Shown: positions 10,313-59,336, counted from the first letter of the stretch. The stretch: 64,000 nucleotides of DNA from a virus (IMGVR_UViG_3300014204_000116:64001-128000); one strand, 5' to 3'. The notes: generated by a model from the letters alone, not told the origin. Numbers and translations are program-made.

Positions 10313-10808
10313 AACCACGGGCCTGACTAAACTCGCTCGGGATCGCATCAAATACCAGGCGGAGATCAAGGCCTGGAACAAAGCTGATACCCTGAGGGAG
10401 GCCATCCACGTCCTTGCGGATATCAAAGCTCCCCAAGCGGCCTTTGTAGAGATCGGCATAGCAGCCGCTGTCGCAGTTCTTCCCGTGTTCGAAAAGAGTC
10501 GCCCCGATGATCCTCGATCTCGCAAGGCAATAGAGGCGCTCAAAGCTTTGCTTAGGCGCGGGACAAAGATCGACGATGCCATTGTTCATGATACTAGTGC
10601 TGCTGCCTGGATTGCTGACCGGAACGCTTCTTATGCGGCCTGGTCTGCTTACTACGCCCTCCAAAGCGCTCAGAGCAAGGATACTTCGGCGTATTATGCT
10701 TACTATGCAGTTTCCCATGCCGTTGGAGCGGGTCTTCGCCACCAGCGAGCAATAAGGATCATCAAGCGAATCGGGCACAAATACTTCGCATTCCTGAGCA
10801 AGCGCTAA
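10293..10808 (+). CDS. Imm5-like domain protein, array copy 2
   Basis: PDDPRSRKAIEALKAL, IIKRIGHKYFAFL; basic N-terminus. Confidence 0.85.
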   Translation: MNKPKAKTTGLTKLARDRIKYQAEIKAWNKADTLREAIHVLADIKAPQAAFVEIGIAAAVAVLPVFEKSRPDDPRSRKAIEALKALLRRGTKIDDAIVHDTSAAAWIADRNASYAAWSAYYALQSAQSKDTSAYYAYYAVSHAVGAGLRHQRAIRIIKRIGHKYFAFLSKR

Positions 10809-10812
10809 GCGA

Positions 10813-11454
10813 ATGAGTGCAAAACTCCAAGCTCTAGACCCTGCCGAATTTGTCCAGTCCTATACCGCAGACAAGTACAAGATGGAGATTGGCGCTTGGG
10901 ACAATGCTACCACTCCGGGGGATCTTCTCTACGCCCTTAAATCTCTCAAAGCTCCCTGCGCAGCCTACGTAGAAATGGGAATAATCATTTCCGAAGAAGC
11001 TCTTTCACAATTTGAGGGTGTGTATCCCAATGATCCTCGGCCTCGACAGGCAGTAGACGCTGCTAAAGCCTGGCTTAAGAATAGAACAGCGGCCAATGAG
11101 GGTGCTCTTAATAAGGCTACCGATAATGCCTACGCTGCTTATAACGCTAAGCTCCAGGCTGCCAGTATCACTTCTGAAACTAGCCGTGCTTGCAAGGGCA
11201 AGGAGGTTCAATTTCGTGCGGCTCAGGCTGCTGCACAGGCCGCTTCTGCTGCACAGGCCGCTTGTAGTGCTTCTTGCCACATATGTGATGCTGATGCCGA
11301 GATTGACTGTGCTTCTTGTGCAGCTTCGGCGACTGCTGGGGTAGCTAACGATGTTGCCCACTATGCCGTCAGGGCAGGTCGCCCCGTTAAAGATGTGATG
11401 GACATCATCAAGGAAGTAGGGCATAGATACTACACGTTTTTGAAGCAGAGCTAA
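10813..11454 (+). CDS. Imm5-like domain protein, array copy 3
   Basis: LDPAEFVQSY head; PNDPRPRQAVDAAKAWL. Confidence 0.88.
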   Translation: MSAKLQALDPAEFVQSYTADKYKMEIGAWDNATTPGDLLYALKSLKAPCAAYVEMGIIISEEALSQFEGVYPNDPRPRQAVDAAKAWLKNRTAANEGALNKATDNAYAAYNAKLQAASITSETSRACKGKEVQFRAAQAAAQAASAAQAACSASCHICDADAEIDCASCAASATAGVANDVAHYAVRAGRPVKDVMDIIKEVGHRYYTFLKQS

Positions 11455-12006
11455 ATGAACACAACAACCGAGATCACAGTCCCAGCCGAATTTGTTCGAG
11501 CTTTCACGGCGGACAAATACAGGAAAGAGATTGTGACTTGGCATACATCTTCTGCCCCGAGTGATCTTGTCATGGTTCTTAGAAACCTCAAAGCTCCCAG
11601 GGCAGCCTTCGTAGAGATTGGCGTAGCCCTGGCCGAGGGAGTTCTTCCAAAATACGAGAGCAGATATCCAGCAGATCTCCGCCCTCGGAAGACAATAGAC
11701 GCTGCAAAAGCTTGGCTTAGAGATGGATCAACAGCCAATGCTCAGGTTGCTGACAGGGAGACCCAGACTTTCTATATCATCACAAAAGTGGCCGACGCTA
11801 TTAGCTCAAATAATGCTACCATTAGCGCAAATAATGCTGCTTATGCGGCTGCTTGCGCTGCCTGGGTTGTCACTGCTGCCCTCTCTAATGTTTCCGTCGT
11901 TATGGCTGTCACTTACGCCATGAATGCAGGTCTCTCTCACCAATGCGTAATTGATATCATCAAAGAAGTGGGTCAGCGATACTTCGCATTCCTAAAGCAA
12001 GCCTGA
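11455..12006 (+). CDS. Imm5-like domain protein, array copy 4
   Basis: PADLRPRKTIDAAKAWL; abuts the previous gene (TAAATG). Confidence 0.88.
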   Translation: MNTTTEITVPAEFVRAFTADKYRKEIVTWHTSSAPSDLVMVLRNLKAPRAAFVEIGVALAEGVLPKYESRYPADLRPRKTIDAAKAWLRDGSTANAQVADRETQTFYIITKVADAISSNNATISANNAAYAAACAAWVVTAALSNVSVVMAVTYAMNAGLSHQCVIDIIKEVGQRYFAFLKQA

Positions 12007-12555
12007 ATGAATGCAATAGCCGAATCTCTAGATCCAGCCGAGTTTGTCCGATCCTACACCACGGACAAATATGGGGAGGAGATTGCAGCCTGGAGCGGGG
12101 CTACTCTTCCCGAGGATCTCATCGACGTCCTTAAGGATCTTAAGGTTCCCCAGATAGCTTATGCAGAGATCAGTGCAGCGCTGTCAGAAGCAGTTCTCCC
12201 CATATTTGAAAAGGAGCATCCCGATGATCCCGAACCTCGGCAAGCCATAGGGATTATCAAATCCTGGCTTAAGGATCAAACAGAAGCCAATGTTCGAGCT
12301 GCTAAGCAACTTTGGGTTTTTCACGCTGCCAATACCTCTTCCGATGCTGCTGTCGATGATCCTGCTGGGGCTGCTGCTTATGCGGCCCATACTGTTCTTT
12401 GTCATGCTATTCTTTCCATCGCTTCTCCTTTTCCTGCTCTATCTGCCCAACGGGCTGCTTTTACAGCCAGCCGGGCGGGCCTCCCTAACCGGCGCGCGAT
12501 GAGCCTGGTAAAAGAAGTGGGCCACAAGTATTTTGCATTTTTGAGCAAGGGCTGA
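12007..12555 (+). CDS. Imm5-like domain protein, array copy 5
   Basis: LDPAEFVRSY; PDDPEPRQAIGIIKSWL. Confidence 0.88.
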   Translation: MNAIAESLDPAEFVRSYTTDKYGEEIAAWSGATLPEDLIDVLKDLKVPQIAYAEISAALSEAVLPIFEKEHPDDPEPRQAIGIIKSWLKDQTEANVRAAKQLWVFHAANTSSDAAVDDPAGAAAYAAHTVLCHAILSIASPFPALSAQRAAFTASRAGLPNRRAMSLVKEVGHKYFAFLSKG

Positions 12556-13071
12556 ATGAGCACGACACTCCAAATTGTAGACCCCGCCGAGTTCGTGAAA
12601 GACTTCACGACGGCCAAGTATGCGCGGGAAATCAAGACCTGGAATGATCCCTCTTCTACCCCTAAGAATCTTGCCCATATCCTTCTCGATCTTAAAGCCC
12701 CCACGGCAGCCCTCGCAGAAATTGGTCTAACGTTGGCAGAAGAAGTTCTTCCGGTGTTTGAGAAGAAGTGCCCTAGCGACCCCCGGCCCAGGAAAGCTGT
12801 AAAGGCGGGAAAAGCCTGGCTTAAAGACAGAACGGAAGCTAATTACAATGCTGCTCAAATCAGCTCTTGGGCTGCTGCCGATGCTGCTCGGGCTGCCAGT
12901 GATGCTAATTCAGAAGATGCTTCCAATGCCGCCTGGACTGCCACTCACGCCCTTCACAACATCGAAGTTGCAGTTTTTTACGCGCGCTACGCCGGGCTTC
13001 CCAATCAACGTGCATTCGGCATCATCAAGAAGGTGGGCCACGATTACTTCGCATTCCTGAGTGAGAACTGA
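12556..13071 (+). CDS. Imm5-like domain protein, array copy 6
   Basis: VDPAEFVKDF; PSDPRPRKAVKAGKAWL. Confidence 0.88.
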   Translation: MSTTLQIVDPAEFVKDFTTAKYAREIKTWNDPSSTPKNLAHILLDLKAPTAALAEIGLTLAEEVLPVFEKKCPSDPRPRKAVKAGKAWLKDRTEANYNAAQISSWAAADAARAASDANSEDASNAAWTATHALHNIEVAVFYARYAGLPNQRAFGIIKKVGHDYFAFLSEN

Positions 13072-13749
13072 ATGAGTGCAACAACCCGAACTGTAGACCC
13101 TGCTGAATTCGTGAAGTCCTTCATGGAGGACAAGTATAGCAGGGAGATCAAGAACTGGAACGAAGTTTACGCGCCAGAGAGTCTCATCTTTATTCTCAAA
13201 GATCTCAAAGCTCCCCATGTAATCTACGCAGAAATTAGCGTAGCCTTGGCGGAAGAAGTCCTTCCGAGATATGAAGAGAAATACCCCAAAGATCTCCGTC
13301 CCCGACAGGCGATAAAATTCGCCAGAGATTGGCTCAACGATAGGACAATGAACAACGCTGCTTGTGCTGCTTGTGCTGCTGCCGCTGCTGCCGCGCGCGA
13401 GGCTGTTGATGCTGCCAATAGCGATATGTGGGCTGTTAATTCTGATGATTCGAATGATTCTGATGATTTTACGGTCGTTACCCCACAGGCCGTTAATGCT
13501 GCTCGGGCCGCGTATGATGCGGTTTCTTCTGCTGCCTGGGCGGGTGCCCACGTTACTCGGGCAGCTTCCAACATCAATTATGCTTCTCACTACGCGGGCC
13601 ATGCCGCCGATAATGCCGCCAGAGCAGGTCTTTCTGATCAGCGCATAATGGACATCATTAGAGTAATAGGGCATAGGTATTATACGTTTTTGAAGCAAAA
13701 CTATCGACATTACACTTTTGAAGTAAAGACGAATGAGCACAATGACTGA
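13072..13749 (+). CDS. Imm5-like domain protein, array copy 7
   Basis: PKDLRPRQAIKFARDWL; longest variable core, with an NSDDSNDSDD insert. Confidence 0.88.
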   Translation: MSATTRTVDPAEFVKSFMEDKYSREIKNWNEVYAPESLIFILKDLKAPHVIYAEISVALAEEVLPRYEEKYPKDLRPRQAIKFARDWLNDRTMNNAACAACAAAAAAAREAVDAANSDMWAVNSDDSNDSDDFTVVTPQAVNAARAAYDAVSSAAWAGAHVTRAASNINYASHYAGHAADNAARAGLSDQRIMDIIRVIGHRYYTFLKQNYRHYTFEVKTNEHND

Positions 13750-14305
13750 GGCTTTAGACCCGGCTACGTTTGTCCAGTCTTACCTGGTGGACAAATATAA
13801 GGCTGAGATTGTAGCCTGGAACGAGGCTCCCTCTCCAAACGCTTTTATCGATATTCTTCGGGATCTCAATGCTTCCAAAGCTGCTTTTGTAGAGATCTGC
13901 GTGGCGTTGGCTGAGGAAGTTCTTCCGGTGTTCGAAAAGGAATTTCCCAAAGATCTCCGCCCTCGGAAAGCAATAGAAGCAGCCAAAGCCTGGCTTAAAG
14001 ATCGAACAGCCGCTAATACCCGAGCTGCTGCTGTTGCTTCTGATGCCGCTTCCAATGCTGCTGTTAATTCTACCGCTATTAAACTTGTTTCTGTTCTTGA
14101 AACTTGGTCTGCTTCTGTCGTTGTCGGTGCTGCTGCTTGGGCTGCCAGCAGAGCTGCTAGTGCTGCTGCTGATACTTCTTATGCTTCTGACTTCACATTT
14201 TGCACCGCTGACGATGCCACTAGAGCAGGTCTTCCTGGGCATCGTATAATGGACATCTTCAGGGAAGTGGGCTACAAGTATTATGCGTTTTTGAAGCCAA
14301 GATGA
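13733..14305 (+). CDS. Imm5-like domain protein, array copy 8
   Basis: EALDPATFVQSY; PKDLRPRKAIEAAKAWL. Confidence 0.88.
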   Translation: MSTMTEALDPATFVQSYLVDKYKAEIVAWNEAPSPNAFIDILRDLNASKAAFVEICVALAEEVLPVFEKEFPKDLRPRKAIEAAKAWLKDRTAANTRAAAVASDAASNAAVNSTAIKLVSVLETWSASVVVGAAAWAASRAASAAADTSYASDFTFCTADDATRAGLPGHRIMDIFREVGYKYYAFLKPR

Positions 14306-14851
14306 ATGAGCACAACAACCATAGATCCCTCCGAGTTCGTTAAGTCTTACACTGCGGAAAGGTATAAGGCTGAGATTAAGGCCTGGAACAAAGCCATTAC
14401 TCCAAGTGCTCTCATCAACTTCCTTAGAGCCTTCAAAGCCCCTAAGGCAGTCTTTGTAGAGATCGGCATAGCGCTTGCAGAAGAAGTTCTGCAAGAATTT
14501 GAGAAGAGATGCCCCAAAGATCGCTGTCCTCATCGAGCAATAAAAGCTGCCAAAGCTTGGCTTAACAATAGAACGGAAGCTAATGCCCAAGCGGCCCGCG
14601 TTAGGGCTACGGAGGTTTACGAAATTTCTTGGGCTTGTGCTACTTCTAATGACGCTGTTAGCAGTACTTATGCCGCTCGTACTGCGGCTTGGGCTGCCCA
14701 CGCTGCTGAAGCGGAGACTCCTGTTGATGCCGCGTACAATACTGACAACGCGCTCGCTTATGCCCTGGCGGCAGATCTTCCTCCCGTACGCGCGCTTGAC
14801 ATCATCAAGGAAGTAGGATATAGATATTATACATTTTTGAAACAGAATTGA
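14306..14851 (+). CDS. Imm5-like domain protein, array copy 9
   Basis: IDPSEFVKSY; PKDRCPHRAIKAAKAWL. Confidence 0.88.
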   Translation: MSTTTIDPSEFVKSYTAERYKAEIKAWNKAITPSALINFLRAFKAPKAVFVEIGIALAEEVLQEFEKRCPKDRCPHRAIKAAKAWLNNRTEANAQAARVRATEVYEISWACATSNDAVSSTYAARTAAWAAHAAEAETPVDAAYNTDNALAYALAADLPPVRALDIIKEVGYRYYTFLKQN

Positions 14852-14865
14852 TCGAATATGGCCGG

Positions 14866-15405
14866 ATGAGCACGACAACCGAAATTGTAGACCCCGCTGA
14901 ATTTGTCCAGTCCTTTACTGCGGCCAAATATCAGAGAGTGGTAGACGCCTGGAGCAATACTCTTTCTCCAGGATGTTTTATCAACGCTTTGGCATCCGCC
15001 AAAGCCCCCAAGGCAGTCTATGTAGAGATCTGCCTGGCGTTCGCAGACGAAATTCTGTCGGTGTTTGAAGAGAAGCACCCTGAAGACTTCCGCCCTCGAA
15101 GGGCAGTAGAAGCAGCCAGGGCCTGGCTTGAGAATAGAACCACTGCTAACGAAGAAGCTGCGCGCAAAGCTGCTGGGGAGGCTTCTCTCGTGGCTTTTAT
15201 CTATTGCGACGACAACACCACTCGTGCTGCTACCTGGGCTACCTGGGCTACCGCTAATACCGCTGGGGCCACGTTTTCTTACGCTGCCTATAATGCTGTC
15301 CAAGCCGTTATCTACGCTATTGGAGCCGGTATTCCTCAACAGCATCTCATGGATATCATTCGGGATGTGGTCCATAGATACTACGCATTTTTGAGCCTGT
15401 GTTAA
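14866..15405 (+). CDS. Imm5-like domain protein, array copy 10
   Basis: Start MSTTTEIVDPAEFV chosen by analogy with its paralogues; PEDFRPRRAVEAARAWL. Confidence 0.88.
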   Translation: MSTTTEIVDPAEFVQSFTAAKYQRVVDAWSNTLSPGCFINALASAKAPKAVYVEICLAFADEILSVFEEKHPEDFRPRRAVEAARAWLENRTTANEEAARKAAGEASLVAFIYCDDNTTRAATWATWATANTAGATFSYAAYNAVQAVIYAIGAGIPQQHLMDIIRDVVHRYYAFLSLC

Positions 15406-15996
15406 ATGAGTGCGACCGCTGAAACTTTAGATCCTGCTACATTCGTTCAGTCTTATATTGTGACCAAGTATAAGAAGGAGATCGAAGCCTGGGGCAAATC
15501 TGCCATTCCAGAAGAACTCATTAGCATTCTTAAAGACCTCAGGGCTCCCAAGGCAGCTTTTGCAGAGATCAGCATAATTCTTGCAGAAGGCATTCTTCCT
15601 GCAATTGAATTAAGGCATCCTGGAGATCTCCGCCCACGTAGGGCGTTAGAAGCTGCAAAAGTCTACTTTAATAAAGATACCGAAGATAATGCTAAAGCCG
15701 TTACCGAAGCTATCGACCACGCATTTAAAGCCGAAGCCGAAGCTACCGGCCATGCTGAATCTGCTGCTGCTGCCTACGCTATTTGTTATGCTGCTCGTGC
15801 CTCTTGTGCCCGCAATATTGAGGAAGCGTCTAATAATGCTGCTTGGACTGCTTATTATGCCACGGCAACATTCCGCATAAAAGCATCCTATGACGCTGTT
15901 GAGGCGACTTCTGCGGTCCTTAACCAGCAGCATATACTGGATGTCATAAGGAAAGTGGGCCGCAAACATTTTGCATTCTTAAACAAGGCCAAATGA
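15406..15996 (+). CDS. Imm5-like domain protein, array copy 11
   Basis: ETLDPATFVQSY; PGDLRPRRALEAAK. Confidence 0.88.
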   Translation: MSATAETLDPATFVQSYIVTKYKKEIEAWGKSAIPEELISILKDLRAPKAAFAEISIILAEGILPAIELRHPGDLRPRRALEAAKVYFNKDTEDNAKAVTEAIDHAFKAEAEATGHAESAAAAYAICYAARASCARNIEEASNNAAWTAYYATATFRIKASYDAVEATSAVLNQQHILDVIRKVGRKHFAFLNKAK

Positions 15997-16631
15997 GCAC
16001 GCTAACCGAAACTTTAAATCCTGCCGAGTTCGTTCAGTCCTATACCCTGCAAAAATATCGGAGGGAGATCGAGGCCTGGGGAAAAGCCGCTACTCCAGGT
16101 GATCTCATCAATGTTCTCAGAATCATCGGCGCTCCGAAAGCCACCTATGTGGAGATCAGCATAGCTCTTGCCGAAGAAGTTCTCCCTGTGTTTGAAAAGG
16201 AATGTCCTCAAGATCCCCGTCCTCGGCAAGCCGTAGAAGCGGCCAAAGCTTGGCTTGTGGGCGGGACACAGGCTAATGTTGAGGCTTCTGCAAAAAGTGC
16301 TGAGGGGGCTTTTAATGCTGTTTGGAATATTAACGCGCTTATGGCAGGGGAGGCCAGGTATGCCGGTCGTGTTGCCTACTGCGCTGCTTATGCTGCTGCT
16401 TATCCTGTGAGTAATGCTGATCAAGCTGCTGTCACTTTCGCTATTGCCTACGCTGTTACCACTTCCGTAGGATATGCCTCTTACACCGCTGCCTGCGCTG
16501 ATCAATCTGCCCAGGCGGCTTATAGTGCTGCTTATTATGCCGTTGAAGCAGGCTTTTCTAATCGTCTTGCGGTGGATATCGTTAGAAGGGTGGGCTGTAG
16601 GTATTTTGCATTCTTGAGGAAAACCAAATGA
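15993..16631 (+). CDS. Imm5-like domain protein, array copy 12
   Basis: ETLNPAEFVQSY; PQDPRPRQAVEAAKAWL. Confidence 0.88.
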   Translation: MSTLTETLNPAEFVQSYTLQKYRREIEAWGKAATPGDLINVLRIIGAPKATYVEISIALAEEVLPVFEKECPQDPRPRQAVEAAKAWLVGGTQANVEASAKSAEGAFNAVWNINALMAGEARYAGRVAYCAAYAAAYPVSNADQAAVTFAIAYAVTTSVGYASYTAACADQSAQAAYSAAYYAVEAGFSNRLAVDIVRRVGCRYFAFLRKTK

Positions 16632-17215
16632 GCCCGACAGCCAAAATTGTAGACCCTGCCGAGTTCGTTCAATCCTTTACTGCGACCAAGTATAAGGAGG
16701 GGATCGAGGTTTGGCGTGATGCTGAGACGCCAGCGGATCTTATTTTTGCTCTTCGAACCCTTAAGGCCCCCAAGGCAGCCTATGCCGAAATTAGTGCAGC
16801 CCTTGCCGAAGAAGTTCTACCGGCATTCGAAAAGAAGTACCCTTGTGATCTTCGGCCTCGGAAAGCCGTAGAGGCTGCCAAAGCTTGGATTAAGAATAGA
16901 ACAGCGGCTAATGCCAGGGCGGCAGAAGAAGCTTCCAACGATGCGTGGCATGCTGCCGATTATGCTACCGACGCTACCTTAATGATGGTTGCCAATGATG
17001 GTGCTGCTGATGCAGCTTCTGCTGCCTACAACGCCGCTGCTGTTGCTTCTGCCGCCTACCCTATTTTCAATGCTTGCCATGTCGAGGGTGATTACACCAT
17101 CTATGCCATTTACGGCACCGTTGACGCCGCCAAGACGGGCATACCCAATCAGCGCATACTGGACACGATCAAAGAAGTGGGCTATAGATATTTTTCGTTC
17201 TTGAAGCCGAGCTGA
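16628..17215 (+). CDS. Imm5-like domain protein, array copy 13
   Basis: VDPAEFVQSF; PCDLRPRKAVEAAKAWI. Confidence 0.88.
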   Translation: MSPTAKIVDPAEFVQSFTATKYKEGIEVWRDAETPADLIFALRTLKAPKAAYAEISAALAEEVLPAFEKKYPCDLRPRKAVEAAKAWIKNRTAANARAAEEASNDAWHAADYATDATLMMVANDGAADAASAAYNAAAVASAAYPIFNACHVEGDYTIYAIYGTVDAAKTGIPNQRILDTIKEVGYRYFSFLKPS

Positions 17216-17228
17216 ATGAGTACAGCGA

Positions 17229-17816
17229 ATGAGTACAATGAGTACGACGACTGCCATCATAGATCCTGCTGAATTTGTCCGGTCTTACACCGAAGCCAAA
17301 TACTGGAAGGAGATCAGGAGCTGGAATGAGGCTGAGGCCCCGGAGGATCTTATCGATGTCCTCAGAGTTCTCAAAGCTCCTAAGATAGCCTTTGTAGAGG
17401 TTGTTGTAGCACTCGCCGAAGAGGTTTTTCCGACGTTCAAGAAGAAGCACCCCAAAGATCTCCGACCTCGGCAAGCAATAGATGCGGCCAAAGCTTGGTT
17501 TAAGGACCAAACGGAAACCAATACTAATGCCGTGAGGGTTGCTGCCATTGCTGCTAATAGAGCTGCCCATGATTGTGCTGCCCGCGCCGATTGTGCCGCT
17601 CAGGCTGCTACCGACAGCGCTTACGTCGCTGGCAATGCTGCTTCTATCACTGCCTATATCGATGATGTCGAGTATCCTGTCGCCTATTCCACTGTTGTTT
17701 CTTATGCCTGCATCGCTACCAGTAATGCTATTCGGGCAGGTCTTTCCGTCGAATGCGCAATGGATATCATTAGGAAAGCGGGTCATAAGCGTTTTGCATT
17801 CTTAAGATTAGATTAA
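17229..17816 (+). CDS. Imm5-like domain protein, array copy 14
   Basis: IDPAEFVRSY; PKDLRPRQAIDAAKAWF. Confidence 0.88.
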   Translation: MSTMSTTTAIIDPAEFVRSYTEAKYWKEIRSWNEAEAPEDLIDVLRVLKAPKIAFVEVVVALAEEVFPTFKKKHPKDLRPRQAIDAAKAWFKDQTETNTNAVRVAAIAANRAAHDCAARADCAAQAATDSAYVAGNAASITAYIDDVEYPVAYSTVVSYACIATSNAIRAGLSVECAMDIIRKAGHKRFAFLRLD

Positions 17817-21396: not shown

Positions 21397-22434
21397 ATGA
21401 ACGAATCGGAACTGAACGAATCGGAACTGCACGAATCGGAACTGAACGAATCGGAACTGAACGAATTGGAACTGCGTGGATGGAAACCGGTTGTGTCTGG
21501 CGTCGAGGACAACTGGATGCTTACCGCCACTTTCGCTGAGGACTTTAGACGTGACGGCTTCGAGATCGTTGATTCGCCGTCGTTCGAGAACGATGGCAAT
21601 ATCGTGCACGTGAAGACGTATCCTGTAACGTGTGAGATCGCTGCGATCCCGCCCATGGAGGCCGTGAAGAGCCCCAAAATATACGTGGAAGTTCGAAACT
21701 ACTGCCGGTTCAAAGGCATCACCCACGTCTACCAGGTTGTCATCAGGCGCGAGGTAATCCGTGGATTGGTATCCCCAAGTCTGTATGTCTACGTCCGGGG
21801 GCGCAGGGTTGTTCCCGACGATCAACCGGCATCCACTACAAGCAGGAATCGTGAGAAGGTCGGGGATGCCCGCCTGGGGTTTTATCCCTACTTCATGGAT
21901 GGCCAGCTTAAGTGGCATCCAGAACCCCGCATTGCCGCCGATCTACTGTACACCGAGATGGAGGGCAAGCTAGATGCTAAATCTAGCAAATTCGTTATTT
22001 ACGCGGTTTACGAGGGTGAAAAAATGACACACCGCGTAGGGAAGACCCACGTAATCGACATTAGGGATCGAACCGTGAGGTTCTTTTCCTGGCTGGCAAA
22101 CAGGGCTATGCCTTCTTACAGCGATTATCTCTATGTGACGGGCTTGTCCATCGCTATGCGTGCGACAAGCGACCGCGAAGCAGCAGTTAGTGCACTAATT
22201 CGTAGCTGCCAGACCCAGCTCGAAGAAGCCTTTACACGACTGTCCAGGATGCGGGAAACCAATCCCAGGTGGGAAATGGTGTTCCAGGAGGAGGGCACCA
22301 CGCCTGATAACCCTGACTATACCCCAGTTGTAGCGGGTACGATGACCGTGTTGCCAGACAATACCCTGGCCTACCTGTTCGATGCGGGTGAGCCCCATCC
22401 CGGCGATCCCCGTCTTTCCACCAAAAAGCACTAA
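21397..22434 (+). CDS. Hypothetical protein with N-terminal (NESEL)5 repeat
   Basis: 345-aa ORF beginning MNESELNESELHESELNESELNELEL. Confidence 0.75.
   Translation: MNESELNESELHESELNESELNELELRGWKPVVSGVEDNWMLTATFAEDFRRDGFEIVDSPSFENDGNIVHVKTYPVTCEIAAIPPMEAVKSPKIYVEVRNYCRFKGITHVYQVVIRREVIRGLVSPSLYVYVRGRRVVPDDQPASTTSRNREKVGDARLGFYPYFMDGQLKWHPEPRIAADLLYTEMEGKLDAKSSKFVIYAVYEGEKMTHRVGKTHVIDIRDRTVRFFSWLANRAMPSYSDYLYVTGLSIAMRATSDREAAVSALIRSCQTQLEEAFTRLSRMRETNPRWEMVFQEEGTTPDNPDYTPVVAGTMTVLPDNTLAYLFDAGEPHPGDPRLSTKKH
21400..21474 (+). repeat. 15-bp tandem repeat x5 (aacgaatcggaactg)
   Basis: Five units, two of them with one substitution. Confidence 0.95.
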
Positions 22435-22684: not shown

Positions 22685-25600
22685 ATGAAGTGTCGGATCA
22701 AAGACTGCCACGGTTACGTGGCTCCCCACGCAACTGAGGAGTCGCGCGTACACGATCTTTGCCCGGCTCATTCCGAGGGCCTTTTAATGACGGCGGAGGA
22801 AGTTGTAGACGAAGCTTTAGACCCTGCCGAGTTCGTTAAATCCTTCACAGCAGCCAAGTACAGGGATCAGATCAGGCGTTGGGACAAAGCTTCCACCGTG
22901 GGGGAGGTCATCGAGATATTGCAACATCTCCGCGCGCCAAAACGAACTTATGCAGAAATCAGCATAGCCCTTGCCGAAAAAGTTCTTCCGGTGTTCGAAA
23001 AGGAATTTCCCAAAGATCTTCGCCCCCGGCAGGCAGTAGAGGCTACCAAAGCCTGTCTTAAGGACCAGACGCCAGCAGTTGTTCAAGCGGCGGTTAATGC
23101 CGCTAATGGTGCTAACGATGCTTCTATCGCTTCCACTATGCACGCTGCTGCTTCCAACGCTGCTTCGGCTGCTTCCAACGCTGCTTGGACTGGTGCTGAC
23201 GGTGCTGACGGTGCTGGCGTTGGTGGAGCTATGTGGGCTGCCGTTGATACTGCCAACACTGCTGCTTATGCTATTAACGCGGGCCTTACCAAGCAGCATG
23301 CGTTGAACATCATCCAGGAAATTGGTGAGAAATACTTTTCGTTTTTGGCCCAATGGGTCAGGAATCCCAAGGCTGAAAAGGTAGCGGAAGCCGACGAAAC
23401 TTTAGATCCTGCCAAATTCGTTAAGTCTTACACCACGACTAAATATAAAAATGAGATTGAGCGCTGGAACAAAGTTTCCACCACAGGGGATGCCCTCGCA
23501 ATACTGCAATTTCTCCGCGCTCCGAAGGTAGCTTACACAGAAATTAGCATAACACTAGCGGAAGAAGTTCTTCCGAAGTTCGAAAAGAAGTATCCTAAAG
23601 ATCTCCGCCCTCGGAAAGCTATAGAGGCTGCCAAAGCTTGGACTAAGAGTCAAACGTCAGCAAATGTTCAAGCGGCTACTTTTGCTGCCGATGCTGCTTA
23701 CAACGCTTCCGTCGCTACCTTCGCCAATGCTGCAATGGCCGCTTCTAATGCAGCATTGGCTGCTTCCAATGCTGCTGCTCAGGCTGGCGCTGATACTACT
23801 GAACGGGCTGCTATCAATGCTGCCAATGCCGCTTATAACGCTATTAGTGCAGGTCTTACCAAGCAGCACGCGTTGGGTGTCATTAAGGGAATTGGTGAGA
23901 AATACTTTTCGTTTTTGATTCGAGGCTGGGGTAAGCACACGTCTGAAAAGGTGGCGGAAGCCGACGAAACTTTAGATCCTGCTGAGTTTGTTCAGTCCTT
24001 TACTGTGGCCAAATACAAGGATGAGATTGAGCGTTGGACCAAATCTCCTACTGTGGGGACTCTTATCGGCGTCCTTAAAGCCATCAAAACCTCCAAGGCA
24101 GTCTTTGTCGAGATCGGGATAGCTATTGCCGAAGAGGCTCTCTCGGTGTTCGAAAATAAGCACCCCGGAGATCTCCAAGATCTTCGCCCTCGGAAAGCTT
24201 TGGAAATAGCTAAAGCCTGGCTTAAGGATCAAACGGAAGCTAATGCTCAGGCTGCTCAGCATGTAGCTTATGAGATTTACGACGCTTATGTTGATTATGG
24301 CACTAACGCTGTTGCTTATGCCGCCCAAGCTGCTGCTTATCCTAAAGCTGCGGGCAGCTATGTCACTTATGCTGCTAGTTCCGCTATTAAGGCAGGCATT
24401 CCTTCTCAGCGATTAGTGGATATTATTCGAGAAATAGGGCATAAGCATTTTGGATTCCTACCCCAAGGATCGGGTGAAACAGCAGCAGAGCCAGTTGTAG
24501 ACGAAGCTCTCGATCCTTCCGAGTTTGTTCAGTCCTATACCACAGACAAGTATAAGAAGGAGATCAAGACTTGGAATAAAAATAGTACTCCAGGGAGCCT
24601 CATTGACGTCCTCAAAGCTCTCAAAGCCCCCAAGACAGCCTACGTAGAAATAGGGGTAATTCTTGCAGAAGAAGTTCTTCCGGTGTTCGAAAAGGAGTTC
24701 CCTAAAGATCTCCGCCCTCGGAAAGCTATAGAGGCCACAAGAGCCTGGCTTAAAGACAGTTCATTAGTTGCTGGCGATGTTGCCGCTGGAGCTATTAAGG
24801 CTGCCGATGAAATTGAAGCTTTTAATAAGGGCGACAGTAACTTTAAGGTCTGGAATACTCACGCCAAGGCCACTCATGCTGCTAAAGTGGCTGCCTTTGC
24901 TGCTTGGTCCGCCTTTGCCTCTTCTAACGTAGGCTTGGCAATTTCTAGCGCGCATTACGCCACTATTGATGCCATAGGCGCGGGCCTCACCAGCCAGCAC
25001 GCGATGGATGTCGTTAGGGAAGTTGGCGGGAGATACTTTTCGTTCTTAACTCAAGGATCGAGTAAAAAGGTAACAAAGGCAGTTGTAGACGAAGCTCTAG
25101 ATCCTGCTGAGTTCGTTCAGTCTTATAATCTGGCCAGGCACAGGAAAGAGATCGAGACCTGGGGAAAAGTTTACAGTCCGATGGCTCTTATTAACGTACT
25201 GCACACTCTCAAAGCTCCCCAGGCAGCCTTTGTACAAATTAGTATAGCCCTGGCCGAAGAAGCTCTTCCGAAATTTGAAAAGAAATATCCTAAAGATCTA
25301 CGACCTCGGAAAGCCATAGAAGCGGCTAAAGCCTGGCTTAAGGACGGAACAACGGCCAATGCTGACGCTGCTGAAGCCGCTGGTAAAGAAGCCATGGCGG
25401 CTGTTGCTATGACTAATCGTAGTAGTAGTCCTTACATGGCTTCTCGGGCCGCTGCTCGGGCCGCTGCTCAAGCCGCTTACATCACTTGCGTTTCTCCCAC
25501 TAGCGACCATGTTTACGCTTACGCGGATGCCACTGCCCTACACTCGGGTAAAGCGGGTGTACCCAAGCAACGTGCGATGGATATCATCCGGGAAGTGGGG

Positions 25601-28600
25601 CACGCATATTTTGGGTTCTTAGCCCAGGGATCAAGTAAAAAGGTAGCGGAAGCCGATGAGACTTTGGACTCTGCCGAGTTCGTTAAGTCCTACACTACGA
25701 CTAAGTATCAAAAGGAGATCGAAGCCTGGAATAAGGCTACTACTCCTGATGCTCTTACCAGCGTCCTTAAGTCTCTTAAAGCTCCGAAGGCAGCCCGTGT
25801 AGAAATCAGTGCAGCTCTCGCGGGAGAAGTTCTTTCGGTGTTCGAAAATACATACCCAGGAGATCTCCGCCCTCGGAAAGCAATAAAAGCTGCCAAAGCC
25901 TGGCTCCAGGATAAGACAACAGCCAATGCCCTGCTGGCTGACGCTGCCGCTGACGCTGCCGATGAAGCTGCCTGGACTGCTTACTATGCTGCTTGCGCTG
26001 CCCAAGCTGATGTCGATGATGGCAGGCCTTCTTGTGCCGCTCATGCCGCTTGGGCTGCCTGGAGTGCCGCTCAGACGGCTACATACAACGTTGTTAACGA
26101 TGCCCACGATGCAGCTAATTATGCCTTAAAGGCGGGTCTTTCTAACCAGCGCATAATGGACATCGTCAAGGATATAGGTGAAGGATACTTTTCGTTCTTA
26201 ATCCCAGGCCAGCCCGGTAAAGTAGTCGAAGCTGGTGAAGCTTTAGATCCGTCCGAGTTCGTTAAGTCTTACCATACGAGCAAGTACAAAAATGAGATAA
26301 AGGCCTGGGGCACCGCCACCGCTCCAAACACTCTGATCGACATTCTCGAACGTCTCAAAGCTTCCAAGAATGCCTACACGGCGGTAAGCGCAGCACTCGC
26401 CGAAGAAGTTCTTCCTGCATTCGAGAAGAGATATCCTGCCGATCCTCGGCCTCGACAGGCAGTAGAAGCTGCCAAAGATTGGCTTGAAGGCAAGATAGTA
26501 AATAACGCTAATGCTGCCGCTCGTGCTGCCAGTGCTGCCTCCGATGCTCGGGCCACCGCCTATGATCGTCTCCCTGGCGTCGATAGAGATGCCGATGCCG
26601 CTGCTTACGCTGCTGCTTACGCCGCTGGTTCTACCACTGGTTCTGCCTACGGTGCTTACAACGCTGTTTATTACGCTGTTATGGCAGGCCTCCCCCAGTC
26701 GCGTGCCGTGGTTATTATCAAGGAAGTGGGCGAGAAATACTTTTCGTTCTTAGGTAGGGGTCCAAGTGAAGGCGTGGCTGAAGTGATTGTGACAAATTTG
26801 CTGGATGAAGTCTTAGATCCAGCCGAATTTGTCCGGTCCTATACCACGGCCAAATATCAGAAGGAGATCGCGGAATGGAACAAATCTACCACTCCAGAGG
26901 CTCTTCTCTACGCCCTTAAATCTCTCAAAGCTCCGAGAGAAATTTTTGTAGAAATTTGTCTGGCATTTGCAGAAGAAGCTCTTCCGATATTCGAAAGTAA
27001 GTTCCCTGAGGATCTCCGCCCACGTAAGGCTATAAAAGCCACCAAGGCTTGGCTTAGGAATAGGACAGTGGAAAATGCTCGTAAGGCTGACCGGGCTGCT
27101 TATGCCTCCGACGAGGCTGCCTCGGCTGCTATTAAGGCCTCGGCCTACGCTGCTGTTGCTTCTGCTGCTGCTCATGCTGCTTCTCGCGCGGCTTGGAGTG
27201 TTAATTCTGCACACGATGTTTTTATTGGCTTTGTCGGGAATACTACTTCGGCTGCCACCTGTGCTACTGAAGCAGGCATCTCTAACCAGCGCGCCATGGA
27301 CATCGTTAGGGAAGTAGGCCACAGATACTTTTCGTTTTTAGACCAGGGCTCCACAGAGGGCGTGGCTGAGGCAATCGTAACAAATTTGCTGGATGAGACT
27401 TTAGACCCTGCCGAGTTCGTTAAGTCTTACACCACGACCAAATATCAGGACGAGATCGAGGACTGGAATAGGGCTATTACTCCGAAGGGTCTTATTGACA
27501 CCCTTACAACTATCAGAGTTCCAGGGGCAGTTTTCGTAGAGATTAGCATAGCTCTCGCAGAAAAGACTCTTCCGGCATTCGAAAGGACGCACCCAAAAGA
27601 GCTTAAGCCACGGAAAACTTTGGAAGCAGCTAAAGCTTGGCTTAAAAACAGGACAAGTGCCAATGCCCGTGTTGCTCGTGCTGCTGCTGATGAAGTCGCC
27701 ATTGGCATATCCGCTGCTAACGGTGCTCGGGCTGCCGCGTGGGCGGCTTACGGCGCTGCTTTTCCTGAGTCTGCCTCTCTTTTTACTGCATATGCCGTTG
27801 GTGACGCCGTTCACGGGGGCCTTACCAACGGTCAGGTGATGGACATCGTCAGGGAAATCGGCCATAGATACTTTTCGTTCTTAGCTCGGGGCTCGGGTGA
27901 AACTAATGAAGCCCTGGACCCCTCCGAGTTTGTCCGGTCCTACAACGCGACCAAATACCGCGAAGAAATAATAGACTGGACTAGTACTTCTACCCCAAAG
28001 GGTCTCATCTTTATTCTCAAGACTCTCAATGCTCCCAAAGCAGCCTTTGTCGAGATTGGCATAGCCCTTGCAGAGGAAGCTCTTCCGATATTTGAAAAGG
28101 AGTTCCCCGAGGATCTTCGCCCTCGGAAAGCTTTGGAAATAGCTAAAGCCTGGCTTAAGGATCAAACGGAAGCTAATGCTCAGGCTGCTGCTGATGCGGC
28201 GGCTGCCGCCTCTACGACCTGGTGGTCTTCCGATGCTACTGCCTATGCCCGTAATAATGCTGCTAGTGCTGTCTACGAGGTTCTTTGGATAGTTGGGACT
28301 GATACCACGAGCAGAGTTGTGGCCACTGCTAATGTGGCTTATTATGCCACTAAAGCAGGCCTTCTCCCTCAGCGCGTGTTTGACGTCGTTAGAAAAATCG
28401 GTGAGAAATACTTCTCGTTCTTAGGCCCGGACACGGATGTAAATGTAGTGGAAGCCAGCGAAGCTTTAGATCCTGCTGAGTTTGTCCAGTCCTATACCCT
28501 GGACAAATATAGGGATAAGATTGAAATTTGGAACAAGTCTACTAACGAAAAGGATCTCCTCTATGTCCTTAGGGATATTGGGGCTCCCAAGACAGCCTAC

Positions 28601-31600
28601 GTAGAAATTGGCCTAGCTTGCGCAGAAGGAGTTCTTCCGGCATTCGAAAAGAAATACCCCGGAGAACTTCGTCCCCGACAAGCGCTAGAAGCTTTAAGAA
28701 CTTGGCTTAAAGACCCATCGCCAGCTAATGCCCACGCTGTTAAGGCTGCTGCTCAGGCCGCTGACGCTGCTGCTCAATTGGCTGCTGTTGACGCTGCTAA
28801 AGCTGAGGACGCCGCTGAAGCTGCTGAAGCTGCGGGTGGTTACTACACCACAGATCACGATATTGACAGAGCTTCTTGGGCTGCCAATGCAGCAGCCAAT
28901 GCTGCCTGGATTATCGGTGTTGTTTATACAGCGCTTGATGCCATTGGCACTGTCTATTACGCCACTAAAGCAGGCCTTCCCCTCCAGCGTGCATTGGATA
29001 TTGTCAGAGGAGTGGGTGCGAAATACTTCTCGTTCTTAGGCCAGGGGCCGAGTGAAAAGGTGGCGGAAGCCCACGAAATGTTAGATCCTTCTGAGTTTGT
29101 TAAGTATTACCACCGGGGCAAATACAGGGAAGAGATTGGGGCTTGGAACGAAACTGACAATCCAGAGATTCTTGTTGCTGTTCTCCGGGCTCTCAATGTT
29201 CCGAAAGTGGCTTATGCAGAGATCAGCGTAGCACTCGCTGAAAAAGTTCTTCCTGTATTCGAGAAGAGGTATCCTAATGATCCTCGGCCTCGACAGGCGG
29301 TAGAAGCTGCCAAAACTTGGCTTGGAGCTAGAACAGTGGCCAATGCCGAGGCTGCGGAAAAAGCTATTGTCGCTGTCTATGCAATTGCTCACATAACCAG
29401 TGCTTCTGCTTCTGTTATTTTTTACGCTGCCCGAGTCGTTCGTAATGCCAAAACTGATCTGGGTGTTGGTAGCACTTCTGCTTATGTTGCCGCCTCTGAA
29501 GCTGCTGGCTACGCCGCTCACTATGCCGTTAAAGCAGGCATTTTCACACAGGAGGTCATAGGCATAATTAAGGAAGTGGGGCACAAGTATTTTTCATTTT
29601 TAGGCCAGGGAACAACCGAGGGCATGTCCGAAGCGATTGTAACAGGTTTGCTAGGTGAAACTTTAGATCCTTCTGAGTTTGTTAAGTCTTACACCCTGAG
29701 CAAATACCAGGTAGAGATTGAAGTTTGGAACAAAGCGTCTATTCCAAAAGATCTTACCGGCGTATTGCAACGTCTTAAAGCTCCCAAAGCTGCCTACGTA
29801 GAGTTTGGCATAGCCGTTGCCGAAGAAGTTCTATCGGTATTCGAGAAGAGGTATCCTAATGATCCTCGGCCTCGTCAGGCAATAGAGGCTGCCAAAACTT
29901 GGCTTAACGACCAAACGGAGGCTAATGCTCTTGCGGCTCGTGCTATTGCTCTTGCCGCTTCTGACGAAGATGTTTCTGATCGGCCTGCCTGCTCTGCTCA
30001 TGCTGCCGCTAATGTCGCTTGGTCTGCTGCCTCTTATTCTGCTTACATTATCTATTCCCTGTATGCTATGGCTGATGCAGCCAGGGTAGGCCTTCCCAGG
30101 CAGCGCATAATGGACATTGGCAGGGAAATAGGCCATAAATACTTTTCATTCTTAGGCCAGGGCACGGATGCAAATGTAACGGAAGCCCTCGATGCTTTAG
30201 ATCCTTCTGCATTCTTTCAATCCTACACGCTGGCCAAATACAAGAAGGACATTAAAGATTGGGGTAAAGCTACGACTTCAGAGGATTTTATCCGTGTCCT
30301 CCATAATATCAATGCTCCCAAGGCAGCTTTTGTAGAGATAGGAATAGCGTGCTCAGAAGAATTACTTCCGATGTTTGAGAAGAACCACCCAGGAAAGGAT
30401 CAACCTCGGAACGCGGTAGAAGCGGCCAAAGCTTGGCTCAAGAACCAGACAACAGCTAATGCCAAAGCTGCCCGTTTTGCAGCAGTTGAGGCTCGGGAAT
30501 TTGCTTCCGATAGCTGGGCGACTGATGCTATGGCTGCTTGTGTCGCTTCGGCTGCTTCTGAAGCCGCTGCTGCCGCTGCTCATGCTCCTACTCCTTCTGC
30601 TTCTGGCCCTAGCTACTCTGCTGTTGCTGCCGGGGGTTCTATCTACTATGCCATGAGGGTCGGTCTTTCTTCCCAGAGCGCAGCCAATATCGTTAAGGAA
30701 GTGGGAAAGAGATATATCTGGTTCTTGAACCAAGATGGGATAAGCAGCGTGGCTGAAACAGCCGTGGCCAACTTGCTGGACGAAGCCTTAGATCCTGCCG
30801 AGTTTGTTAAGTCCTACACCCTTGACAAATACAGCGATGAGATTGAAACGTGGAACAAAGCTACCACTACAACGGCTCTTATCAACGTATTGAAATCTCT
30901 TAAATCTCCTGGTGCAGCCTTCGTAGAGATTAGTGCAGCTCTCGCAGAAGAAGTCCTCCCGGTATTTGAAAAAGCGGCACCTAATGATCTCCGGCCTCGG
31001 AAAGCTGTAGAGGTCGCAAAAGACTGGCTTAAGGGCAGGGCAACAGGTGATGCCGATGCTCTCAGTGGCGCTGCTCTGGCCGCTTACGAGGTTCTTACCA
31101 GAGCTGCGACTGCGGCTTTTGATATTGAGTCTACCTGGGCCGCTGTTCAAGCCGCCGATCAGGCCGCTGCCGCTGCTCGGGCTGCTGCTTGGACCGCTAA
31201 CGTTGTAAGCAACAACAACATTAATGCCGATGCCAGGGACGTGGCTAACGTGGTTTTTTATTCTGTCAGGGCAGGCCTCCATAACCGGCACGTGATGAGC
31301 ATCGTCAAGAAGGTGGGCGAGAAATACTTTTCGTTCTTAAGCCGGGGCTCGAAAAAAAGGCAGCCAAAAGCCACTCCAGGCAAGTTGCCCGAAGATAACG
31401 CCGATCAGTCCATACTCTATCATTTGGCAGACGTGGCTAAGTATTCTGACAGGTGGCATGCTTACGTATTAAATTCTGCCGGGGAAAAGATCTATTTGAC
31501 GCCAGACAGCACGCTTACTAAAGATCCAATCCTGTGGACGACGCAACAGCGCGCGCGGGTGATAGGTAGCCATTACTGGCAAAGTGTACAGTGGGAGCGC

Positions 31601-31648
31601 GTTCCCTATGATATCGCAAAGTCCAGCGAAGAAAGTGGTGGGGTGTAA
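22685..31648 (+). CDS. Polyprotein (2987 aa) of 15 tandem Imm5-like units
   Basis: Unit heads E-x-L-D-P-x-E-F-V (with minor variants) at ~22811, 23396, 23966, 24503, 25091, 25658, 26237, 26807, 27395, 27908, 28460, 29075, 29657, 30191 and 30782. Each unit has the (D/E)-x-(R/K/Q)-P-R-x-A motif and a G..(Y/H)F.FL-like end. Short Cys/His N-terminus and a unique ~100-aa C-terminus. Confidence 0.92.
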   Translation: MKCRIKDCHGYVAPHATEESRVHDLCPAHSEGLLMTAEEVVDEALDPAEFVKSFTAAKYRDQIRRWDKASTVGEVIEILQHLRAPKRTYAEISIALAEKVLPVFEKEFPKDLRPRQAVEATKACLKDQTPAVVQAAVNAANGANDASIASTMHAAASNAASAASNAAWTGADGADGAGVGGAMWAAVDTANTAAYAINAGLTKQHALNIIQEIGEKYFSFLAQWVRNPKAEKVAEADETLDPAKFVKSYTTTKYKNEIERWNKVSTTGDALAILQFLRAPKVAYTEISITLAEEVLPKFEKKYPKDLRPRKAIEAAKAWTKSQTSANVQAATFAADAAYNASVATFANAAMAASNAALAASNAAAQAGADTTERAAINAANAAYNAISAGLTKQHALGVIKGIGEKYFSFLIRGWGKHTSEKVAEADETLDPAEFVQSFTVAKYKDEIERWTKSPTVGTLIGVLKAIKTSKAVFVEIGIAIAEEALSVFENKHPGDLQDLRPRKALEIAKAWLKDQTEANAQAAQHVAYEIYDAYVDYGTNAVAYAAQAAAYPKAAGSYVTYAASSAIKAGIPSQRLVDIIREIGHKHFGFLPQGSGETAAEPVVDEALDPSEFVQSYTTDKYKKEIKTWNKNSTPGSLIDVLKALKAPKTAYVEIGVILAEEVLPVFEKEFPKDLRPRKAIEATRAWLKDSSLVAGDVAAGAIKAADEIEAFNKGDSNFKVWNTHAKATHAAKVAAFAAWSAFASSNVGLAISSAHYATIDAIGAGLTSQHAMDVVREVGGRYFSFLTQGSSKKVTKAVVDEALDPAEFVQSYNLARHRKEIETWGKVYSPMALINVLHTLKAPQAAFVQISIALAEEALPKFEKKYPKDLRPRKAIEAAKAWLKDGTTANADAAEAAGKEAMAAVAMTNRSSSPYMASRAAARAAAQAAYITCVSPTSDHVYAYADATALHSGKAGVPKQRAMDIIREVGHAYFGFLAQGSSKKVAEADETLDSAEFVKSYTTTKYQKEIEAWNKATTPDALTSVLKSLKAPKAARVEISAALAGEVLSVFENTYPGDLRPRKAIKAAKAWLQDKTTANALLADAAADAADEAAWTAYYAACAAQADVDDGRPSCAAHAAWAAWSAAQTATYNVVNDAHDAANYALKAGLSNQRIMDIVKDIGEGYFSFLIPGQPGKVVEAGEALDPSEFVKSYHTSKYKNEIKAWGTATAPNTLIDILERLKASKNAYTAVSAALAEEVLPAFEKRYPADPRPRQAVEAAKDWLEGKIVNNANAAARAASAASDARATAYDRLPGVDRDADAAAYAAAYAAGSTTGSAYGAYNAVYYAVMAGLPQSRAVVIIKEVGEKYFSFLGRGPSEGVAEVIVTNLLDEVLDPAEFVRSYTTAKYQKEIAEWNKSTTPEALLYALKSLKAPREIFVEICLAFAEEALPIFESKFPEDLRPRKAIKATKAWLRNRTVENARKADRAAYASDEAASAAIKASAYAAVASAAAHAASRAAWSVNSAHDVFIGFVGNTTSAATCATEAGISNQRAMDIVREVGHRYFSFLDQGSTEGVAEAIVTNLLDETLDPAEFVKSYTTTKYQDEIEDWNRAITPKGLIDTLTTIRVPGAVFVEISIALAEKTLPAFERTHPKELKPRKTLEAAKAWLKNRTSANARVARAAADEVAIGISAANGARAAAWAAYGAAFPESASLFTAYAVGDAVHGGLTNGQVMDIVREIGHRYFSFLARGSGETNEALDPSEFVRSYNATKYREEIIDWTSTSTPKGLIFILKTLNAPKAAFVEIGIALAEEALPIFEKEFPEDLRPRKALEIAKAWLKDQTEANAQAAADAAAAASTTWWSSDATAYARNNAASAVYEVLWIVGTDTTSRVVATANVAYYATKAGLLPQRVFDVVRKIGEKYFSFLGPDTDVNVVEASEALDPAEFVQSYTLDKYRDKIEIWNKSTNEKDLLYVLRDIGAPKTAYVEIGLACAEGVLPAFEKKYPGELRPRQALEALRTWLKDPSPANAHAVKAAAQAADAAAQLAAVDAAKAEDAAEAAEAAGGYYTTDHDIDRASWAANAAANAAWIIGVVYTALDAIGTVYYATKAGLPLQRALDIVRGVGAKYFSFLGQGPSEKVAEAHEMLDPSEFVKYYHRGKYREEIGAWNETDNPEILVAVLRALNVPKVAYAEISVALAEKVLPVFEKRYPNDPRPRQAVEAAKTWLGARTVANAEAAEKAIVAVYAIAHITSASASVIFYAARVVRNAKTDLGVGSTSAYVAASEAAGYAAHYAVKAGIFTQEVIGIIKEVGHKYFSFLGQGTTEGMSEAIVTGLLGETLDPSEFVKSYTLSKYQVEIEVWNKASIPKDLTGVLQRLKAPKAAYVEFGIAVAEEVLSVFEKRYPNDPRPRQAIEAAKTWLNDQTEANALAARAIALAASDEDVSDRPACSAHAAANVAWSAASYSAYIIYSLYAMADAARVGLPRQRIMDIGREIGHKYFSFLGQGTDANVTEALDALDPSAFFQSYTLAKYKKDIKDWGKATTSEDFIRVLHNINAPKAAFVEIGIACSEELLPMFEKNHPGKDQPRNAVEAAKAWLKNQTTANAKAARFAAVEAREFASDSWATDAMAACVASAASEAAAAAAHAPTPSASGPSYSAVAAGGSIYYAMRVGLSSQSAANIVKEVGKRYIWFLNQDGISSVAETAVANLLDEALDPAEFVKSYTLDKYSDEIETWNKATTTTALINVLKSLKSPGAAFVEISAALAEEVLPVFEKAAPNDLRPRKAVEVAKDWLKGRATGDADALSGAALAAYEVLTRAATAAFDIESTWAAVQAADQAAAAARAAAWTANVVSNNNINADARDVANVVFYSVRAGLHNRHVMSIVKKVGEKYFSFLSRGSKKRQPKATPGKLPEDNADQSILYHLADVAKYSDRWHAYVLNSAGEKIYLTPDSTLTKDPILWTTQQRARVIGSHYWQSVQWERVPYDIAKSSEESGGV

Positions 31649-54728: not shown

Positions 54729-54733
54729 ACTTG

Positions 54734-54994
54734 ATGTCACTGACAGAATACATTGTAGACAGTTTGCTACAAGAATCTCCTAATCTTGAGACGCTGAAGA
54801 AGCACAAGGTAGCCCTAACGCCGGACGAGAAGCGGAGTTTTAAGGAGTGCAGCCAGGATCAGTCAGCCACGGCCATGAAATCGGTCGTCAACGGCAAGAC
54901 CTGGTACGCATGCTATACGCACCGAGCTTGCCAGGTTAGCCCTACCCTCAAGGGCGCTCTAAAGGCTTATCCAGAAATTGCTGCTACCGGCTAG
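54734..54994 (+). CDS. Small putative head protein
   Basis: MSLTEYIVDSLLQES motif; GTAGTTA at 54721-54727. Confidence 0.65.
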   Translation: MSLTEYIVDSLLQESPNLETLKKHKVALTPDEKRSFKECSQDQSATAMKSVVNGKTWYACYTHRACQVSPTLKGALKAYPEIAATG

Positions 54995-59313: not shown

Positions 59314-59336
59314 ACAATTTGATGACTGAAAAAATT

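Follow-up and report, generated by a model that had tools for sequence, protein, structure and literature searches.

This report concerns a 64,000-nucleotide stretch of viral DNA, referred to here as the window, and a single long open reading frame (ORF) within it that encodes a repetitive polyprotein, P0001. The window comprises bases 64001-128000 of a 159,890-bp virus contig from IMG/VR (IMGVR_UViG_3300014204_000116; CheckV completeness 72%). The gene content of the contig is that of a myovirus, with a T4-like portal (PF07230), a tail sheath, gp25-like and gp6-like baseplate proteins and a large terminase, and it also encodes an SbcCD-like nuclease, a helicase and a primase. The P0001 ORF is open for 2987 codons at positions 22685-31648 (+ strand) and specifies a protein of 320.9 kDa with an isoelectric point of 6.0. 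An ORF scan combined with Pfam shows a 43-residue Cys/His leader, 15 units of the Imm5_like family (PF21805) and a C-terminal tail of approximately 100 residues. The family match has an E-value of 1.2e-90 and 300.5 bits against a curated cut-off of 25, and it covers 13 stretches; the count of 15 units comes from using the unit's conserved start and end motifs as anchors. The same ORF, designated P0003, is present with 100% identity in a second, independent assembly, so P0001 is not a product of mis-assembly.

All features of the polyprotein lie on the + strand. The leader (22685-22813) has a C-x4-C ... C-x2-H spacing that is putatively zinc-ribbon-like, and it ends in V-D-E immediately before unit 1. 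The units are 164-192 residues long (17.5-20.5 kDa). Units 1 to 7 occupy 22814-23347, 23399-23917, 23969-24460, 24506-25048, 25094-25621, 25661-26200 and 26240-26752. Units 8 (26810-27340) and 9 (27398-27883) are each preceded by a 19-residue linker (26753-26809 and 27341-27397), whereas the shortest linker, of 9 residues, precedes unit 10 (27911-28423). Units 11 (28463-29038) and 12 (29078-29602) are followed by a third 19-residue linker (29603-29659) and units 13 (29660-30154) and 14 (30194-30727) by a fourth (30728-30784), which leads into unit 15 (30785-31339). The C-terminal domain (31340-31645) is without a family match.

The Imm5-like domain is present in 33 copies in this phage: 15 in P0001, 14 in free genes and four in a second polyprotein, P0002; the Imm5_like profile exceeds its curated cut-off at 25 of 31 places in the genome. 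The free genes form an array of 14 back-to-back genes (9743-17816, + strand) that encode untagged proteins of 171-225 residues and whose stops and starts abut or overlap. P0002 (55009-59313, + strand; 1434 residues) is composed of an N-terminal domain of about 440 residues, four Imm5-like units (56305-58554), a short tag of the kind described below and a C-terminal domain of about 230 residues. It thus holds three kinds of module, whereas P0001 holds only one repeated domain family. A tree of all units is a star whose terminal branches are approximately 0.9 changes per site long, and it does not resolve the fused from the free ones.

An AlphaFold model of a single unit is a nine-helix bundle with a predicted local distance difference test score (pLDDT) of 95 and a predicted template-modelling score (pTM) of 0.90. 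The earlier note on this sequence suggested looking for independent domains joined by disordered linkers, and a model of units 8 and 9 together bears this out: the domains have pLDDT 80-95, both linker stretches, the one at 26753-26809 included, stay below 50 and form no more than a short helix, and the model as a whole has a pTM of 0.49. On these models P0001 is predicted to be a string of independent all-alpha domains, arranged like beads. Conservation is uneven along the unit. The N-terminal ~90 and C-terminal ~35 alignment columns have an entropy of 1.4-1.8 bits, while the length-variable middle of 40-83 residues is 36% Ala and reaches 2.4-2.6 bits. Within the motif D-L-R-P-R, P-R is almost invariant among the units.

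Both the sequence family and the fold point to immunity proteins. Imm5 is mostly helical with a conserved Arg (PMC3482391), and the unit has both features. An exhaustive structural comparison gave as best match 7jtu_B, the protein SsdAI, with Z 11.6 and a root-mean-square deviation of 3.1 Å over 143 of 178 residues, at 8% sequence identity; the next match had Z 8.9. SsdAI, whose structure is entirely helical, confers immunity to the DYW-like single-stranded DNA deaminase toxin SsdA by blocking its active site (PDB 7JTU; PMC7901873). The original definition of Imm5, too, was as an immunity protein paired with DYW-type deaminase and CdiA-CT toxins (PMC3239186; PMC3482391). Family and fold therefore agree. 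Foldseek and a sequence profile, each run against the PDB, gave no significant match for the unit, and a shape search of the ESM Atlas returned weak matches only. The unit is accordingly described here as a predicted binding domain of toxin-immunity type, Imm5-like in sequence and SsdAI-like in modelled fold.

The 14 internal linkers of P0001 are 9-19 residues long. The earlier note described them as ending in Glu just before x-L-D-(P/S), and this reading of the 2987-residue ORF stands: Glu directly precedes the motif in 14 of the 15 units, unit 14 alone having Asp at this position with Glu three residues upstream. All three internal junctions of P0002 likewise end in Glu. Glu is thus found at the last linker position in 17 of 18 fused units as compared with 6 of 12 free ones (Fisher p 0.009). 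This position is as conserved as the best columns of the unit itself, where mean column identity is 39%, and such conservation does not come from recent copying, because the unit tree is a star of long branches. The linkers all follow a common template that opens with a stretch rich in Gly, Ser and Pro, continues with (K/G)-V-A-E-A and, in some of them, I-V-x-x-L-L, and closes with x-E. The four 19-residue linkers carry the full form; the first of them, for example, runs from its Gly/Ser/Pro-rich part into A-E-x-I-V-x-x-L-L-D-E. In P0002 two places carry the long form.

It had also been claimed that cleavage at these sites would give products nearly co-terminal with the stand-alone genes. The free genes start 5-7 residues ahead of the same D-P and end 2-3 residues past the last F-L of the unit. 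A cut after Glu would therefore give N-termini near those of the free genes, as claimed, but C-termini longer by one retained linker of 9-19 residues, so the claim is borne out at one end only.

The junctions also show a bias at the DNA level. The first Leu/Val codon of each unit (e.g. 22817-22819 and 23402-23404) and of the free genes at 10813-17816 has A in the wobble position in 24 of 27 units and is TTA in 14 of 18 fused units, whereas A ends only 17% of the other Leu/Val codons of these genes (binomial P ~7e-16). As a result the DNA word T-A-G-A-Y-C-C, which contains a TAG out of frame, is conserved. Two words of 15 nucleotides recur exactly in nine junctions, although the units are only ~45% identical. 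Possible explanations of the T-A-G-A-Y-C-C word are a recombination joint, a rare-codon pause and an off-frame stop.

The linker ending is not confined to the Imm5-like proteins. A 12-residue tag ending in (L/I)-x-E starts at least 8 unrelated proteins of this phage (8-11, depending on the method). The 193 predicted proteins contain 16 matches to the strict pattern where 3.5 would be expected, and five matches within the first 12 residues where the expectation is 0.14 (500 shuffles, maximum 2). A position-specific scoring matrix built from 12 instances finds eight further sites, mostly N-terminal, against 0.47 expected. Relatives of the phage were recovered by a portal search as an IMG/VR phage clade (portal identity 51-82%), in which several contigs measure 210-240 kb and reach a completeness of 93-100%. 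With a relaxed N-terminal form of the tag, 11 proteins are found in this phage, 10 in the relative G001 and 13 in the relative G004, where 1.5-2.7 would be expected (2.2-2.7 for the two relatives). Within the window (all + strand) the tag is found at residues 4-15 of the 521-residue product of the gene directly downstream of P0001 (31654-33219) and at the start of a 114-residue protein (752-1096); an 87-residue protein (54731-54994) is also tagged, and a 96-residue protein (59310-59600) has a tag-like N-terminal stretch. The tag also precedes the C-terminal domain of P0002, which is not Imm5-like, so it is not a trait of the Imm5-like fold but marks the start of modules of many kinds.

Comparison with G001 shows that modules are fused or split exactly at tags in three cases. 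The 87-residue tagged gene corresponds to the last module of a 517-residue G001 protein with four tags. The C-terminal domain of P0002 is a free tagged gene of 221 residues in G001. A tagged 275-residue gene of this phage corresponds to an internal module of a tagged 1190-residue G001 protein, where it directly follows a tag-like junction. At another locus (L005:16898-18582 in this phage, 111829-116302 in G001), two conserved genes flank a tagged 233-residue protein here and an unrelated, tagged 1190-residue multi-module protein there. This locus may be regarded as a variable cargo slot whose occupants share nothing but the type of tag, and it recalls the hypervariable loci that encode internal proteins in T-even phages.

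A candidate protease is encoded in the clade. Peptidase_S77, the family of T4 gp21, is found above its curated cut-off in all four near-complete relatives and in two closer fragments. In the relatives the domain is fused to a scaffold-like tail of ~350 residues, and in G001 the gene is directly followed by a gp23-like capsid gene. The G001 capsid gene (L159:15901-17355) and its G004 homologue encode gp23-like proteins with a conserved N-terminal extension of ~90 residues before the Gp23 domain. A few residues before that domain the G001 extension contains L-D-E, the triplet that ends the long linkers of P0001, and this triplet is a possible internal calibrator of the protease site.

In T4, internal proteins are loaded through an N-terminal targeting sequence of 10-20 residues, which gp21 removes by cutting after Glu, and IPI* acts as an injected inhibitor of a restriction enzyme (PMC3012670; PMC5694885). 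Proteases of the gp21 type cut after Glu in A-x-E in SPN3US and in I-T-E and L-T-E in T4 Alt (PMC5694885). The reading that we tentatively prefer, while giving it somewhat less than an even chance, is that P0001 is a cargo polyprotein. By analogy with the T4 capsid-targeting sequence, the tag would bring proteins into the prohead core. The gp21-type S77 protease of the clade would then cut after the final Glu, and perhaps also after the Glu of V-A-E, to free ~15 different domains of ~19-21 kDa. These would enter the next cell with the DNA and bind toxin-type effectors, for which deaminase-like toxins are the best structural precedent. The proposal extrapolates to targeting, cutting, injection and targets from the domain identity, the predicted independent folding, the shared tag, the modular boundaries and the protease of the relatives. 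The untagged 14-gene array would make the same kind of domain in the cytoplasm later in infection. The 33 paralogues would then form one library in two formats, a capsid-packed, cut and injected polyprotein that supplies ~19 antitoxin modules before phage expression and a cytoplasmic array; this wider scheme is possible but doubtful. The IPI* comparison that had been offered for the injected products serves as an analogy only.

Several observations weigh against the cargo reading. The Z-score of 11.6 falls in a range where helical bundles may match by chance, so the SsdAI match is support and not proof. The cognate toxin for the Imm5-like units of this phage is not known, and a scan of the neighbouring genes found no toxin families. 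The Glu at the proposed cut position is also present in half of the alignable free genes, and the site therefore belongs in part to the domain's own N-terminal motif; the start x-L-D-P-x-E-F could be a plain helix cap. The full tag is present in only 4 of the 14 internal linkers of P0001, the other 10 having a short A/V/T-x-E form. The N-terminus of P0001 itself carries no canonical tag, whereas targeting of the T4 type is known for N-terminal tags. The Imm5-like units are absent from all ten relatives searched, and no polyprotein comparable to P0001 turned up in closely related phages, which leaves no counterparts against which the conservation of these linkers could be judged; the repertoire is thus a private expansion of this lineage. 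Finally, the phage's own contig has no protease, scaffold or capsid gene: profile searches of it with Peptidase_S77, Gp23, Peptidase_S78, Phage_capsid and CLP_protease gave no match, and neither did tblastn with the protease and capsid proteins of G001. In G001 the head genes sit just past the point at which our contig begins, and the protease and capsid genes are therefore probably located in the missing 28%. The prohead protease that the earlier note proposed to look for elsewhere in the genome is found in relatives and not on the contig itself. The reading of the linkers as protease sites is upheld in part: the modelled independent domains with low-confidence linkers, the shared (L/I)-x-E tag, the S77 protease of relatives and the splitting of modules at tags speak for it, while the untagged N-terminus, the ten short linkers and the Glu of the free genes speak against it.

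The main rival, and a serious one although less likely than not, is an uncut polyvalent immunity protein, in which the whole 321-kDa chain would act as a multivalent toxin sponge in the cytoplasm and the linkers would be flexible spacers left by tandem duplication. Bacterial polyimmunity proteins are thought to work uncut, and polyimmunity loci are established in bacteria as runs of closely spaced genes in one orientation, uninterrupted by toxin genes (PMC3482391), a pattern that the free array at 9743-17816 matches. Flexible linkers would suit a spacer role, and the untagged N-terminus of P0001 and the Glu in half of the free genes favour this rival. A spacer role, however, leaves unexplained why the linkers reuse a 12-residue tag of unrelated proteins, why the tag also stands before the C-terminal domain of P0002, and why the final Glu is so much more conserved than the average column of the unit.

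It is improbable, in our judgement, that P0001 is processed but not packaged, with the linkers cut in the cytoplasm by the phage protease acting outside proheads or by another protease. Fifteen proteins would thereby be made in equal amounts from a single message, and the tag would serve another purpose such as docking. The junction syntax and the fusion and fission at tags argue for separable modules and are silent on location, and no virion gene adjoins the P0001 ORF. Proteases of the gp21 type are nevertheless known to act inside proheads (PMC5694885; PMC3012670), and since the free array already supplies the cytoplasm with individual proteins, a second route to them would be redundant. A structural or scaffold-like head protein without an immunity role, whose Ala-rich helical units form an inner body or fill the capsid, is very improbable: paralogous, protease-processed inner-head proteins do exist in giant phages (PMC5694885; PMC10052503) and the units are indeed helical and rich in Ala, but both the family match and the fold, which resembles that of SsdAI, indicate binding modules, the diversified middle region (2.4-2.6 bits, as compared with 1.4 in the frame) and the absence from all relatives fit poorly, and single Imm5-like genes occur in many unrelated phages of ~40 kb.

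The cargo reading can be set beside several known systems. T4 IPI, IPII, IPIII and Alt begin, like the tagged proteins here, with a conserved, short amphipathic tag that ends in (L/I)-x-E, and the cargo behind it is highly variable; the clade also has a T4-like portal, and its relatives have a gp21-type protease and a gp23-like capsid protein. In contrast to the single-module cargo of T4, the tag here is also internal, where it joins 15 homologous domains, or four domains and unrelated modules. Its sequence is unrelated to that of T4, and for P0001 cleavage and packaging are proposed. The inner-body paralogues of phiKZ and SPN3US (PMC5694885; PMC10052503) are head-internal and cut after Glu at A/S/G-x-E, to which the A-x-E, V-x-E and T-x-E of the short linkers may be compared. 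They differ in being separate genes with long propeptides and not a polyprotein, and they have no homology to P0001.

Bacterial polyimmunity loci and proteins (Zhang et al. 2012, PMC3482391), from whose catalogue the Imm5 and Imm5_like family comes, resemble this locus in two respects: paralogous immunity genes follow one another in tandem on one strand without an intervening toxin gene, and a single polypeptide can hold several immunity domains. The encoder here is, however, a lytic-type giant phage and not a bacterium, 33 copies of one family are present with 15 in a single chain, and the linkers contain a phage tag whose ending is of the protease-site type. SsdAI (7JTU) resembles the unit in its all-alpha fold and similar size but differs in the low sequence identity, and no deaminase partner is known for this phage or its host. 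Polyvalent proteins (Iyer et al. 2017, PMC5512222) are large conflict proteins of phages and conjugative elements with 2-15 domains. Those of phages are predicted to be packaged and to travel with the DNA, and some undergo processing. They combine different enzymatic effector domains with in-chain peptidases, whereas P0001 repeats one non-enzymatic binding domain and has no peptidase. P0001 thus does not have the several different effector or enzyme domains that define this class; P0002 comes closer.

Searches of cultured phages gave no DNA match, no unit match and only remote portal matches. Among proteins of 1642-5228 residues in a collection of 5.8 billion sequences, none resembles P0001 except the same ORF from the other assembly. 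A search of 1.84 billion representatives with the unit profile found ~6000 relatives, and nearly all of the best 150 are single-domain proteins. Single Imm5-like genes are common in unrelated phage contigs, mostly of ~40 kb, and BFVD already includes an "Imm-5-like" phage protein. No neighbour recurred at 80 other phage loci with Imm5-like genes, and two genomic contexts of the closest outside homologues were uninformative. Some multi-unit Imm5-like proteins are found in unrelated lineages, each with its own conserved junction word. Such multi-Imm5-like loci include P0006 (L087:10001-19210), P0021 (L088:8866-13518), P0022 and P0023 (L089:9695-13228). A 3069-residue protein on a 619-kb NCBI contig has 12 units together with ParB-like and NUDIX modules, joined at A-E-L-L-T-T-G, and the modules of a 1550-residue protein are joined at (L/I)-x-E-I-K-V. 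A literature search found no paper on prohead-protease-processed polyproteins of tailed phages or on PF21805 in phages. What is new here is a homogeneous and diversified immunity repertoire in a dual format of polyprotein and free array.

If the cargo reading is correct, the phage would deliver a "poly-immunity" arsenal from its capsid against toxin-based host defence or the weapons of competitors, and processing of polyproteins by a prohead protease would be a general mechanism for multiplexing cargo. The T4 rule of "tag, load, cut, inject" would then cover a string of 15 cargo modules. The notion of bacterial polyimmunity would extend to a virus, and toxin-type effectors, perhaps deaminases, would be a major barrier to this phage. 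For this uncultured clade, with its 210-240 kb phages, the tag could serve to predict which proteins are injected as cargo, and the units could supply a naturally occurring set of variants in which a single scaffold presents a hypervariable region for binding.

Some further observations concern the surroundings of the locus. Approximately 40-55 proteins, mostly structural and replicative, are common to this phage and two relatives, and most of the window is lineage-specific. Only ~6 window proteins have homologues in two complete relatives, while gene order over the first 64 kb of the contig is for the most part shared with these two; judged from its genes, the window is a lineage-specific accessory region of which ~30% is Imm5-like coding sequence. 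The T4 late promoter word occurs only twice in the genome, in neither case ahead of a gene, and a search for identical copies of the contig-end proteins, by which the contig might be extended, found no record. Just upstream of P0001, a 345-residue ORF without a family match (21397-22434, + strand) starts with about five tandem copies of the pentapeptide N-E-S-E-L. A 1372-residue protein (1109-5227, + strand), also without a family match, has at least four internal junction-like sites, each an acidic run followed by I/L-D/Q-P-x-E/D-hydrophobic, and two homologous modules of ~100 residues that each follow such a site; it looks like another multi-module protein with the same junction syntax. The large terminase ORF (L005:9325-13665; genome 137325-141665) encodes 1446 residues as compared with 704 in G001, and only residues 496-996 align. 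Its extra C-terminal part has HNH-endonuclease and helix-turn-helix matches, which suggests that the terminase carries inserted or fused mobile-element domains.

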